The position numbers and the translations under genes were made by a program. The notes under the pieces are model-generated. The model was not told the DNA's origin. It saw only the letters and a list, made by a program, of their open reading frames with translations, and made no database searches. A stretch of 5,563 bases of DNA, taken from the IMG/VR virus record IMGVR_UViG_2657244940_000011; one strand, 5' to 3'. The DNA is from a virus (taxonomy: Duplodnaviria; Heunggongvirae; Uroviricota; Caudoviricetes). Shown here piece by piece: positions 2,969 to 5,563 of the stretch. Positions within the stretch are counted from its first letter, which is position 1, and every line of letters begins with the position of its first letter.

Positions 2969-3334
2969 ATGACCGAACGCATAGAATTTGTTTTGCCTTA
3001 CCCGCCGACGGTGAACACTTACTGGCGACGCCGTGGCAGCACATATTTTGTATCAAAAGCCGGGGAGCGTTATCGCCGGGCAGTGGCGCTTATTGTTCGC
3101 CAGCAGCGGCTGAAATTAAGCCTGTCCGGAAGGCTGGCGATAAAGGTGATTGCAGAGCCACCGGATAAGCGTCGTCGCGACCTGGACAACATTCTGAAAG
3201 CACCGCTGGATGCGCTGACGCATGCGGGAGTGCTCATTGATGACGAGCAGTTTGATGAAATCAATATTGTACGTGGTCAGCCAGTATCTGGTGGACGGCT
3301 GGGTGTGAAGATTTACAAAATTGAGAGTGAGTGA
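2969..3334 (+). CDS. rusA: Crossover junction endodeoxyribonuclease RusA (Holliday junction resolvase)
   Basis: 121-aa product with PDKRRRDLDN...DAL...DD...GGRL, matching the RusA catalytic-region pattern as I remember E. coli RusA. ATG 2969 directly abuts the upstream TAA (2966-2968). Confidence 0.9.
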   Translation: MTERIEFVLPYPPTVNTYWRRRGSTYFVSKAGERYRRAVALIVRQQRLKLSLSGRLAIKVIAEPPDKRRRDLDNILKAPLDALTHAGVLIDDEQFDEINIVRGQPVSGGRLGVKIYKIESE

Positions 3335-3897
3335 GCGTAAATATGATATATCCGGAAATTACAGGCAAAAGCGGCGAGCATTTACGCCTAAAAACGCTGG
3401 AAGCAGTCTGGATCCAAGGGCGATTACGGATGTGGGGGCGTTGGTCGTATATTGGCGGCGGTAAGACGGGAAATATGTTCAACCAATTACTGACCTCTAA
3501 AAAGCTGACAAAAACGGCAATTAACGAGGCGCTCCGGAGGATGAAAAAAGCTGGTCTGGACAAACCTGAACTTGAGGCTTTTTTGCGGGATATGATCAAC
3601 GGCAATCAAAAAAGCTGGCTGGCACATTGTACCGATTCAGAGGCGTTAATAATCGACAGGGTTATTGGCGAAGTCCTGGCAGGCTATCCCGGGCTGCTCA
3701 ATGTCCTGAGTCAGCGTTATGTGGGGCGGGGGATGACTAAGCGCAAAATGGCTGAACTGCTGAATGATGCACACCCGGAATGGAGTTTAAGAACCTGTGA
3801 AAGACGCATTGAGCATTGGCTAAAGGTGGCAGAATTTATTTTGTACAAACCAATGGTTATGGCTTTTGGTATAGAGAAAAAAGTTATTGCTTTTTGA
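3331..3897 (+). CDS. Late-gene antitermination protein Q (Q21/QuuD-like family)
   Basis: GTG 3331 overlaps the rusA stop (GTGA); an alternative start is ATG 3343. The N-terminal W-G-x-W...G...LLTSKK pattern resembles what I recall of QuuD. Position after rusA and just before a short leader plus strong terminator matches the canonical Q-PR'-tR' arrangement. TGA stop at 3895-3897. Confidence 0.7.
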   Translation: MSVNMIYPEITGKSGEHLRLKTLEAVWIQGRLRMWGRWSYIGGGKTGNMFNQLLTSKKLTKTAINEALRRMKKAGLDKPELEAFLRDMINGNQKSWLAHCTDSEALIIDRVIGEVLAGYPGLLNVLSQRYVGRGMTKRKMAELLNDAHPEWSLRTCERRIEHWLKVAEFILYKPMVMAFGIEKKVIAF

Positions 3898-3976
3898 CGT
3901 AAAAACTGCTTCAATTTCGGTACGCTTCGCAAAGCCGTACCACGAGGCGAATAGCAGACATGGACATTTGAAAGAG
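3867..3976 (+). promoter_or_regulatory. Putative late promoter PR' / qut region and short leader
   Basis: Placed by synteny (Q stop to tR'). Candidate elements are an extended -10 TGgTATAGA (3867-3875), TTGACG (3894-3899) and a hairpin ggtacg(3919-3924)/cgtacc(3936-3941). No consensus -35/-10 pair could be fixed by eye. Confidence 0.3.
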
Positions 3977-3998
3977 CCCGCTTTTTGCGGGTTTTTTT
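3977..3998 (+). terminator. Intrinsic terminator (tR'-like) ending a short post-Q leader transcript
   Basis: Hairpin cccgc(3977-3981)-ttttt-gcggg(3987-3991) followed by TTTTTTT (3992-3998). Confidence 0.7.
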
Positions 3999-4139
3999 AT
4001 GCCTGAAAAACGGCACAGAACATTAAACGCGCTGGTGGTTGCGAATACCGGTCTTTCAGCTTGCTGGCTTTTCCGACAAGAGTTATTGGTATGTTACGTT
4101 AACCAGAAAATGGAAAAAGACATGCTAAAACAGTAGGAT

Positions 4140-4319
4140 ATGACCGAAACCGCCAGAGTGGTGTTTAATGAATTAAGTGCCACCGAACCGGCGACAGTCG
4201 GGGAGATTGCGCAGAATACTTACCTTTCACGTGAACGCTGCCAGTTAATACTGACCCAGCTTGTTATGGCGGGGCTGGCAGACTATCAGTTCGGTTGTTA
4301 CAGACGCCTTCAGTCCTGA
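4140..4319 (+). CDS. Small helix-turn-helix-like protein (59 aa), absent from the ORF track because it is below 60 aa
   Basis: ATG 4140 to TGA 4317-4319 encodes MTETARVVFNELSATEPATVGEIAQNTYLSRERCQLILTQLVMAGLADYQFGCYRRLQS. The segment GEIAQNTYLSRERCQLIL looks like an HTH. AGGA at 4135-4138 is only 1 nt from the ATG (poor spacing), and an in-frame TAG lies at 4134-4136. The stop codon is inside the 3' stem of a strong terminator. Confidence 0.4.
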   Translation: MTETARVVFNELSATEPATVGEIAQNTYLSRERCQLILTQLVMAGLADYQFGCYRRLQS

Positions 4320-4329
4320 AGGCTTTTTT
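4306..4329 (+). terminator. Intrinsic terminator
   Basis: Hairpin gccttca(4306-4312)-gtcc-tgaaggc(4317-4323) followed by TTTTTT (4324-4329). Confidence 0.65.
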
Positions 4330-4422
4330 ATTTGTGGTAAATGGGCGGCTGGTGGGTGTGGTGGTTGTTGCTTTCCCGTTGCTGAAAAAGAAAGCATCAG
4401 GCGATTAGCAGGGTATCAGTTA

Positions 4423-4673
4423 CCCGTTGAAATTTTTAAATACCTCACAATTCAGGCGGTTGACTGTTGTCTGGTTTGCGGGGAGTTTGTTAAAAGAAAC
4501 TGGCATGGTGAATCCCCCTGTGCGGAGGGGCAATCAGCGACTGGTGTTTTGTCACCGACCCTTATCCTTTCTGTGCGGGTTCAGGTGCTGATACTGAACT
4601 CACCGGGAGGCACCCGGCATCATGCAATGGCACATAGCGCCACTCTCCAGCCCCTCTCCGGAGGGGCTTTTCT
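4423..4673 (+). repeat. Tandem repeat unit A (~250 bp) carrying three conserved GC-rich hairpins
   Basis: Shares with unit B: cccgtt(g/a)aat at the start, ctcacaattcag (4444-4455), TTGAC (4460), gcatggtgaatccccctg(t/a)gcggaggggc (H1, stem 4515-4530), ctgaactcaccgggaggcacccggca (H2, 4594-4619, 26/26 identical) and agcccctctccggaggggcttt (H3, 4649-4670, 22/22 identical). Confidence 0.6.
4650..4673 (+). terminator. Intrinsic terminator (hairpin H3 of repeat unit A)
   Basis: gcccctc(4650-4656)-tccg-gaggggc(4661-4667) followed by TTTTCT. Confidence 0.55.
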
Positions 4674-4861
4674 GTGCCGGATACATCACAGTTTCTGGAA
4701 CCTTAGGTACTACAGTATCAGTCAGGGTGCTATATTTTCAGATGTGATGAAAGCCTGTCAGCAGGCAGGGCGTATCGGAAATGACCCAGTAGAGAAAACG
4801 TTGACTCAGATACCGGTGCTGAGTTACCGGGAAACCGGCATCACATGACCGCTATCCTTCT

Positions 4862-4889
4862 AGGCCCATCCGCTCCGGTGGGCCTTTTT
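4862..4889 (+). terminator. Intrinsic terminator preceding repeat unit B
   Basis: aggccca(4862-4868) ... tgggcct(4879-4885) with an internally paired loop (ccg-ctc-cgg), followed by TTTTT (4885-4889). Confidence 0.6.
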
Positions 4890-4906
4890 ACTGCAGAAAA
4901 CAGGTT

Positions 4907-5160
4907 CCCCGTTAAATGCTATGTTGCTCACAATTCAGTAAGTTGACAGTTGCCTGTCAGACTGGGCATTTGTTAAAAAAATTTCGCATGGTGAATCCCC
5001 CTGAGCGGAGGGGCGACTGGTGACGGTATAATCTCTGATTATCAAAACGAGAATGACGCGGGTTTAGTGGCACCGGGCTGAACTCACCGGGAGGCACCCG
5101 GCACCATGTGCATGATGATACAGATACGCGGCTTTAGCCCCTCTCCGGAGGGGCTTTCTT
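4907..5160 (+). repeat. Tandem repeat unit B (~250 bp), diverged copy of unit A, offset ~484 bp
   Basis: Same three hairpins at nearly the same spacing as unit A (H1 stem 4998-5013; H2 stem 5087-5101; H3 5137-5154), with diverged spacers. Also carries the palindrome tgacag-ttgc-ctgtca (4944-4959) and a perfect TATAAT (5027-5032). Confidence 0.6.
5137..5160 (+). terminator. Probable intrinsic terminator (hairpin H3 of repeat unit B)
   Basis: gcccctc-tccg-gaggggc followed by an interrupted T-run TTTCTT; weaker than the unit A copy. Confidence 0.4.
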
Positions 5161-5166
5161 GTGGGC

Positions 5167-5191
5167 AAAAAAAGCCCGAGTGGGTTCGGGC
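5167..5191 (-). terminator. Hairpin with A-tract on the + strand, i.e. a terminator-like structure for the - strand (or bidirectional with 5137-5160)
   Basis: AAAAAAA (5167-5173) then gcccga(5174-5179)-gtgggt-tcgggc(5186-5191); on the - strand this reads hairpin plus TTTTTTT. No - strand gene is visible downstream within the window. Confidence 0.35.
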
Positions 5192-5246
5192 AACAGCATG
5201 AGATATACATTTTTATAATCGAATGGATTTTAACCAGAATTCATAA

Positions 5247-5271
5247 GGCTGCGCAACTGCGCGGCCTTTTT
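5247..5271 (+). terminator. Intrinsic terminator
   Basis: ggctgcgc(5247-5254)-aact-gcgcggcc(5259-5266), an 8-bp stem with one G-U pair, followed by TTTTT (5267-5271). Confidence 0.55.
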
Positions 5272-5373
5272 CGTATTGCGGGCTGTAGTCTTCCTCCTGC
5301 CATTGTCCTGTAACTTCCGGACTTCAGCTCGCTCCTTATCTGACTCACAACATTATCCCGACCGGGAGGATTC

Positions 5374-5563
5374 ATGACATTTAAACACTACGATGTGGTC
5401 AGGGCGGCGTCGCCGTCAGACCTTGCGGAGCGACTGACACAAAAACTGAAGGAGGGGTGGCAGCCATTTGGCAGCCCTGTCGCCATCACGCCTTATACCC
5501 TGATGCAGGCCATTGCGGCGGAAGGTGATGTCACCACACCTGTGGTGGTGAAGCCGTCGGATG
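5374..5563 (+). CDS. Hypothetical late-region phage protein, 5' end only (runs off the window)
   Basis: ATG 5374 is preceded by GGAGG at 5365-5369 (4-nt spacing). The frame is open for 63 codons to the window end (MTFKHYDVVRAASPSDLAERLTQKLKEGWQPFGSPVAITPYTLMQAIAAEGDVTTPVVVKPSD...). Not in the ORF track because there is no stop in the window. Confidence 0.6.
   Translation, partial: MTFKHYDVVRAASPSDLAERLTQKLKEGWQPFGSPVAITPYTLMQAIAAEGDVTTPVVVKPSD

Follow-up and report, generated by a model that had tools for sequence, protein, structure and literature searches.

The subject of this study is a 59-amino-acid (aa) open reading frame (ORF) at positions 4140-4319, on the + strand, of a 5,563-nucleotide (nt) stretch of Caudoviricetes DNA (IMG/VR record IMGVR_UViG_2657244940_000011), the whole of which is referred to here as the window. 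Judged by the codon pattern of its homologues the ORF is a genuine protein-coding gene under strong purifying selection, and its product is predicted to be a minimal winged-helix domain. It is an already catalogued small phage gene and the finding, real as it is, is largely ordinary. In the best joint explanation, to which we assign a probability of about 0.6, this coding winged-helix gene is the first of a Q-dependent late transcript, the terminator at its end gates a methyltransferase gene that follows it in related loci, and its protein is an accessory of the methyltransferase cassette. The elements on which this explanation draws are the following:

3331-3897: Q-like antiterminator gene, DUF1133 (PHROG 'anti-termination protein Q-like')
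3970-3998, + strand: strong tR'-like intrinsic terminator after the Q-like gene (-16.6 kcal/mol, z = -4.8, U7)
4060-4097, + strand: conserved non-coding motif CTTGCTG-N(~13)-CA(A/G)AGTTAT(T/C)(G/T)GTATGT(T/C)AC, 25-60 nt before the native start
4122-4136, + strand: native start region by alignment to relatives, ATG then Leu-Lys-Gln, broken by TAG at 4134-4136
4140-4319, + strand: 59-aa ORF under study, with an ATG start, from the ORF listing
4306-4329, + strand: intrinsic terminator over the stop codon, with arms GCCTTCA/TGAAGGC, loop GTCC and then T6
4335-4359, + strand: remnant of the leader RNA 5' end by alignment to relatives, TGGTAAATGGGCGGCTGGTGGGTGTGG, containing the Chi site GCTGGTGG at 4348-4355

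Coding evidence and protein family

The ORF encodes the product MTETARVVFNELSATEPATVGEIAQNTYLSRERCQLILTQLVMAGLADYQFGCYRRLQS. Among 70 unique homologous coding sequences (CDS) no frameshift was identified. The copies of phages phiP27 and SfV differ at 19 synonymous and 4 non-synonymous positions (dN/dS ~0.04), and in comparisons of E. coli with other genera pS reaches saturation (~0.75) and pN is 0.08-0.11. The invariant helix-3 residues CQLILTQL are each encoded by 2-6 different codons. A preliminary description of this DNA, made from the sequence alone, had named conservation and the balance of synonymous and non-synonymous changes as one way to judge the frame; both point to purifying selection, with no frame-breaking indels in the homologues. 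It had also called the gene unannotated, which is true of the ORF track supplied with the window and owing to length alone, 59 aa being one codon below the default cut-off of 60 aa; in the RefSeq and GenBank relatives the gene is annotated as a CDS of 63-65 aa.

The same description left room for a region without a gene, that is, an untranslated structured leader or RNA element. This view draws on the poor Shine-Dalgarno spacing at 4140 and on the hairpin at the 3' end of the region, and is opposed by the selection at protein level, by a folding energy that is unremarkable over the ORF outside the terminator (z = -0.99), by the absence of any Rfam match in 3900-4473 and by the highly confident fold prediction presented below. 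Since the codon analysis shows a coding pattern, the untranslated leader is effectively refuted, and we regard it as extremely improbable.

The product matches the PHROG 331 profile over residues 1-58 (E = 3.4e-33). This family is labelled as of unknown function and its members are named 'hypothetical protein' or 'TrmB family transcriptional regulator' by PGAP; among them are WP_000917743.1, L23 of phiP27 and orf47 of SfV. Identity is 100% to residues 7-65 of the JNEC-KY177 copy and 95-98% to the copies of phiP27, SfV and the Stx2 (Shiga toxin 2) phages. The protein was identified by tblastn in 55 phage records, comprising phiP27 (L23), SfV (orf47), many Stx2a/2c/2d phages and phages of Klebsiella, Citrobacter and Hafnia, and the DNA query 3900-4480, formed by the gene and its flanks, matched 2,920 of 5,426 complete E. 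coli genomes. A protein search yielded 341 homologues. The family is small, since only 85 members were retrieved by a profile search of 1.84 billion cluster representatives (at 50% identity), and every identifiable source belonged to the Enterobacterales (phages). The window copy shares with the other PHROG 331 members the place after Q and a terminator, and differs from them in lacking the first six codons (TAG at codon 5), the leader and the methyltransferase.

In Pfam no family reached its gathering threshold: TrmB (PF01978) scored 18.6 bits against 25.6, HTH_24 (PF13412) 15.4 against 21.9 and MarR_2 (PF12802) 15.1 against 27, with DprA_WH as a further winged-helix match below threshold. 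NCBIfam gave nothing beyond an Lrs14 match of 12-13 bits (cut-off 90). The sequence search of the PDB gave no significant match, the best one having a full-sequence E of 0.0093 and no single significant stretch. An assignment to defence or anti-defence was rejected, the sole match being one of 15.7 bits in PADLOC.

Native start and nonsense allele

The CDS of the RefSeq and GenBank relatives starts 18 nt upstream of the ORF, at the equivalent of ATG 4122 in the window, and alignment to them places the native gene, of 63-67 aa, at this codon. All of the 70 unique sequences open with ATG-YTA-AAW-CAN-NNN-GAT-ATG, where Met1 is invariant and Leu2 varies synonymously only (three codons, one amino acid). 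A Shine-Dalgarno-like GGA or GGAG is found 10-17 nt before the native start across genera and none is conserved for Met7. The N-terminus M-L-(K/N)-x-x-D-M-T conserved in the family is not found in the window, in which a C-to-T change at 4134-4136 has turned CAG (Gln5) into TAG; relatives have CAG or another sense codon there, and all the other unique CDS of the set are open at codon 5.

The short length and the poor Shine-Dalgarno sequence of the ORF result from this allele, because it cuts off the native start. AGGA at 4135-4138 is a single base from ATG 4140, and the preliminary description was right to call this spacing poor. The only product possible in the window is the one of 59 aa initiated at Met7, with the whole fold kept. 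When the 64-aa form is modelled, its additional six residues at the N-terminus come out disordered, with low confidence, and lie outside the fold, so that a product re-initiated at ATG 4140 would be structurally complete.

The exact 80-mer around TAG was found in none of the 5,426 complete E. coli genomes. Gene calls of the 59-aa product exist on 22 public contigs. The four inspected (L117, L118, L119 and L122) all carry TAG and share 99.9-100% identity with the window, which suggests a young allele. It occurs together with the downstream methyltransferase (L117 and L122) as well as without it. In one other locus (L120) the 59-aa gene call is followed by the methyltransferase and the Shiga-toxin A and B genes, and the upstream sequence ends before the position of TAG.

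An in-frame 45-aa ORF at 3999-4136 was rejected as coding, relatives using other frames and having indels there. Gene calls in the databases often fuse it with the small gene into proteins of 94-106 aa, which is a non-coding over-extension. A pairing of CTTGCTG, in the upstream motif, with codons 4-6 (CAGCAAG) was rejected as well, codon 5 being hypervariable.

Predicted fold

The AlphaFold model of the 59-aa product (31-sequence alignment; pLDDT 95.7, pTM 0.81) comprises three helices, at residues 3-10, 20-27 and 31-43, and a beta hairpin formed by strands 47-50 and 53-56, which is the wing. The segment likened in the preliminary description to a helix-turn-helix (HTH) corresponds to helix 2-turn-helix 3 of this confident model, and the structure prediction proposed there returned, more precisely, a winged helix. 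Among the 50 Foldseek matches listed, winged-helix domains were recovered with probability 1.00 and TMq (TM-score normalised to query length) of 0.64-0.86; they belong to IclR and MarR regulators, N-domains of O-methyltransferases and SelB, with 0.73-0.86 for the IclR and MarR structures. The topology of three helices and a beta hairpin is shared with the TrmB, MarR and IclR winged helices (PF01978, PF12802 and PF13412), whereas the present protein would be a bare domain of ~55 residues, acidic, with no dimerisation or ligand domain and with Pfam scores below the cut-offs. Helix 3 contains the invariant T39 and Q40, and in most members an RR or KR pair is found in the wing, which may hint indirectly at sequence-specific DNA binding. 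Only two cysteines are present (C34 and C53), with no zinc-finger cluster.

Terminator over the stop codon

The stop codon TGA (4317-4319) had been described as embedded in the stem of a terminator, and it coincides exactly with bases 1-3 of the 3' arm. The terminator scan identified GCCTTCAGTCCTGAAGGC at 4306-4323, with 7 pairs (4 of them GC) and a loop of 4, followed by TTTTTTATTT. Folded alone, this hairpin has -10.5 kcal/mol (z = -2.8). In sequence and folding the element is a GC-containing hairpin directly followed by a U-run, as in rho-independent terminators; over 3700-5563 the same scan counted 10 terminator-like sites, shuffled sequences giving 2.5 +/- 1.5. The hairpin is conserved in Enterobacteriaceae homologues with compensatory arms (GCCTCCA/TGGRGGC, GCTGCCA/TGGCRGT and CTCCGC/GCGGAG), where the 5' arm encodes Arg-Leu-Gln and synonymous changes of its Leu codon are followed by matching ones in the non-coding 3' arm. 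These changes support a function of the stem, not necessarily termination.

According to the tR2 experiments presented in PMC4824070, a terminator located a few base pairs after a gene in E. coli is almost fully repressed by the translating ribosome. The interference between translation and termination that had been suggested for this ORF has in them a direct experimental precedent, and by analogy a coupling of read-through to translation of the ORF may reasonably be inferred. Terminators at or within coding ends likewise have a hairpin and a U-tract starting in the last codons; the arrangement is a common one and nothing unusual.

Methyltransferase and leader RNA in related loci

In the relatives the small gene occupies a fixed slot formed by a Q gene, a terminator, the ORF, a leader RNA of ~150 nt and a methyltransferase gene. 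The last of these was identified 142-152 nt downstream of the small gene in 81 of 111 related loci and encodes a beta-class N6-adenine methyltransferase of ~350 aa (PF01555), of the M.EcoGII/M.EcoGI type. Upstream of the small gene, before the terminator, are either inserted morons or Q genes, of which at least four clusters unrelated to one another were distinguished. The upstream half of this synteny is present in the window, and the downstream half, leader and methyltransferase, is absent. Phage 1720a-02, named as the carrier of a close M.EcoGII relative (PMC5778455), has the small ORF 153 nt upstream of the M.EcoGII-like gene, and in many Stx2 phages the cassette is found between Q and stx2. 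M.EcoGII and M.EcoGI are reported to be non-specific adenine methyltransferases encoded by prophages, silent in lysogens and deleterious upon constitutive expression (PMC5778455). No description of the in-vivo control of enzymes of this type was found in the literature searched.

In the RNAalifold structure the leader RNA has two domains and a long-range helix whose 3' strand ends immediately before the methyltransferase ATG. Of its 28 pairs 18 are changed on both sides and 95.9% of cells are paired, values that none of 500 shuffles reached (slid controls, 22-42% paired), with the proviso that the alignment was fitted to the covariance model and the pair counts therefore lean towards structure. 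The model recovers the leader in phage N15, Serratia phage OS31 and Vibrio phage VHML (E = 2e-7 to 3e-9), and an Rfam search gave no match for it. From this comparison the leader is a candidate new cis-regulatory element of a toxic enzyme, ranging from E. coli phages to N15 and VHML. Examples are located as follows:

L002: 3181-3345
L003: 3178-3341
L101: 2671-2837
L112 (N15): 1357-1515
L115 (VHML): 1302-1462

Recombination junction

The likeness of the window to the methyltransferase-bearing relatives stops at ~4356-4359. From ~4350 onwards it corresponds to the 3' part of the DUF3927 gene of other prophages (window 4350-4408; L116:1428-1559), a small gene which in them is located downstream of Q and tRNAs. 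The join passes through a similar patch of ~20 nt that includes the Chi site, GGCTGGTGGGTGTGGTGG on one side and GTGGCGGGTGTGGTGG on the other, and the covariance model of the leader found no match in the window. The leader and the methyltransferase were replaced in the window by a module rich in small RNAs (sRNAs) of the STnc100 type, through recombination at ~4350-4360. About 206 complete genomes match at least 80% of the query 3900-4480, which spans the junction.

Two Chi sites GCTGGTGG in the same orientation, at 4031-4038 and 4348-4355, are located on either side of the small gene. The downstream one falls within the 5' arm of the second helix of the leader RNA and is conserved in the Enterobacteriaceae relatives.

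Region upstream of the gene

The placement of the ORF just after tR', as first described, agrees with the strong terminator that follows the Q-like gene and with the same position in the related loci aligned. An equivalent terminator was identified in almost all of these loci, whatever the Q family, and the SfV record annotates it as a putative rho-independent terminator. The motif at 4060-4097 is kept from E. coli to Proteus and Providencia. It is considered non-coding because the extensions proposed by gene callers differ in frame and indels are tolerated nearby, and it may serve as promoter, operator or mRNA element. A sigma-70 consensus scan of the + strand of 3700-5563 gave no promoter match, including at the motif, and in a manual reading of the alignment sigma-70, sigma-54, LexA, DnaA and IHF fits to it were poor and were discarded. 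A Q-binding element was rejected too, the same motif following four unrelated Q families.

Proposed mechanism and alternatives

According to the preferred explanation the small gene would be the first one of the Q-dependent late transcript. The hairpin over its stop codon, with the U-tract, would form a second barrier, after the tR'-like terminator, to RNA polymerase unmodified by Q, and would help to silence in lysogens both the toxic non-specific methyltransferase and the downstream late (lysis/toxin) genes. On reaching the end of the ORF a ribosome would occupy the hairpin and suppress termination, so that read-through would be coupled to translation of the ORF. In the TAG allele ribosomes would reach TGA only via re-initiation at ATG 4140, three bases past TAG; speculatively, an early nonsense codon could reduce read-through into the methyltransferase by keeping ribosomes away from the stop within the terminator. 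The protein itself would most likely be a nucleic-acid- or partner-binding accessory of the methyltransferase cassette and not an obligatory subunit.

Several observations weigh against this explanation. A polymerase modified by Q would ignore the stop-codon terminator anyway, and the upstream terminator is a putative tR', assigned by position only. The hairpin is absent in the Proteus and Providencia homologues and the strong T-run is found in the E. coli type only, the U-tract being weak elsewhere, so termination is not universal in the family. N15, OS31 and VHML have terminator, leader and methyltransferase without the small ORF; the protein is therefore dispensable for the enzyme and not an obligatory subunit of it, and on this distribution the ORF appears to be an add-on confined to an enterobacterial subclade. 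Conversely, the small gene is intact in loci that lack the methyltransferase, such as JNEC-KY177, and may have a role of its own. In most members of the family the protein is acidic (pI ~5), which is atypical for a stand-alone DNA binder and tempers the assumption of DNA binding. Finally, in the literature searched, including that on SfV orf47, phiP27 L23 and Pas/STnc100, no experiment or expression data on the small gene were found.

The closest functional analogies are com-mom of phage Mu and the PNB-2/M.EcoPA8 holoenzyme. Com works by opening an inhibitory mRNA structure. The com-mom layout resembles that of the present loci in that the gene of a small protein directly precedes a toxic DNA-modification gene, Com being a regulator and a zinc-finger protein (PMC3299994); it differs in that the small protein here is predicted to be a winged helix, with no homology to Com, and in that the downstream gene encodes a methyltransferase and not Mom. 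In Stx phage PA8 the methyltransferase M.EcoPA8orf6770P is directed to 16S rRNA by PNB-2, a winged-HTH protein with which it assembles into a 1:1 holoenzyme; the PNB-2 gene is immediately upstream of, and co-transcribed with, that of a prophage adenine methyltransferase (PMC10810198). However, PNB-2 has 143 aa, and its enzyme is an MT-A70 of 208 aa from the early-left region, in contrast with the beta-class enzyme of the late region; homology of the small protein to PNB-2 was rejected (hhalign probability 12% over 17 columns). A controller (C) protein of a restriction-modification system was rejected as well, the fold being winged helix and not Xre and no palindrome being conserved, and no adjoining endonuclease gene was identified in the annotated relatives examined.

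From these analogies a stronger reading can be drawn, which we find doubtful: the winged-helix protein would be a dedicated partner of the methyltransferase cassette, and ORF, hairpin and leader would form a three-layer switch, hitherto undescribed, for the toxic enzyme, the stop-embedded terminator coupling translation of the ORF to read-through. The partner could open the leader as an RNA-binding activator, in the manner of Com though folded differently; it could be a subunit with a redirecting or restraining effect on the enzyme, comparable to that of PNB-2 on M.EcoPA8; or it could be a reader of N6-methyladenine. Another possibility, near to the view of the preliminary description, is an autonomous moron with its own terminator and with the motif at 4060-4097 as its promoter, expressing from the prophage, without connection to the methyltransferase, a small DNA-binding regulator of transcription (a late-gene regulator, a repressor or an anti-repressor). 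The gene is indeed bracketed by two terminators and has one of its own, follows a conserved non-coding motif, is intact where the methyltransferase is missing, is absent from the equivalent cassettes of N15, OS31 and VHML as an inserted unit would be, and carries a PGAP name of transcriptional regulator. Yet the + strand has no sigma-70-like promoter in 3700-5563, and in the best fit obtained manually, TTGCTG-N17-TAT(T/C)(T/G)G, the -10 element does not end in the conserved T; no robust palindromic operator was identified, the 4-bp repeat CAGA..TCTG not being conserved in the E. coli and Proteus types; and both the acidic protein and the lack of support in the literature searched speak against it. 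We consider the autonomous moron unlikely.

For the window copy in particular, a dead relic must also be weighed, in which TAG at codon 5 has abolished expression and the ORF persists only owing to the recency of this mutation. The conserved native frame is broken by a nonsense codon, Met7 has no conserved Shine-Dalgarno sequence and only one base between AGGA and ATG, and the leader RNA and the methyltransferase are already deleted. The allele is also rare, on 22 contigs against 317 and 875 for the two common intact forms, in carriers almost identical to the window. On the other side, translational coupling is established in bacteria, which makes termination followed by re-initiation plausible at an ATG three bases past TAG. 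Over the remaining 59 codons the sequence is otherwise undamaged and does not differ from the intact copy of JNEC-KY177, the lost residues lie outside the fold, and the same allele is found in loci that still carry the methyltransferase (L117 and L122). The relic appears to us a less probable account than the preferred explanation, although a more credible one than either the dedicated partner or the autonomous moron.

Other features of the window

The window (~5.5 kb) is a late-regulatory region of a lambdoid E. coli prophage and contains, apart from the elements above, the following:

1-197, left edge: hokD-type toxin ORF and 3' end of a sok-like RNA
365-592: 75-aa ORF without family match, which could be the antitoxin of the Fic/Doc toxin ORF
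602-1096: toxin ORF of the Fic/Doc family (PF02661)
1904-2968: DUF968/HNH gene
2969-3334: RusA
4474-4679 and 4957-5166, + strand: two full-length copies of STnc100 sRNA (138 and 165 bits)
4718-4891, + strand: degenerate third copy of STnc100, weak (28.5 bits)
5169-5221, - strand: AsxR, a match at the gathering score (63 bits) that overlaps a sub-threshold AgvB match
5374: start of a DUF1737/NanS-p-type esterase gene

An identical terminator sequence, AACCCGCTTCGGCGGGTTTTT, occurs twice, at 266-287 after the hok region and at 1112-1134 after the Doc gene. Weak isrK-, rsmX- and istR-like Rfam matches overlap these two terminators and are probably hairpins only.

Significance

Taken alone the ORF, with its ordinary terminator, encodes a small phage protein that is already catalogued, and it matters mainly through its context. 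For annotation it illustrates that a real gene can escape notice when a cut-off of 60 aa meets a nonsense allele, and that gene callers often over-extend the same gene to 106 aa through a non-coding upstream stretch. The family to which it belongs is the conserved upstream neighbour of non-specific adenine methyltransferases of the M.EcoGII/M.EcoGI type. The more interesting lead lies mostly outside the window, in the unannotated leader RNA and in a possible three-layer control of M.EcoGII-type methyltransferases. In the Stx2 phages, where the cassette is located between Q and stx2, changes of termination or read-through at this point could affect the expression of late genes and of the toxin.

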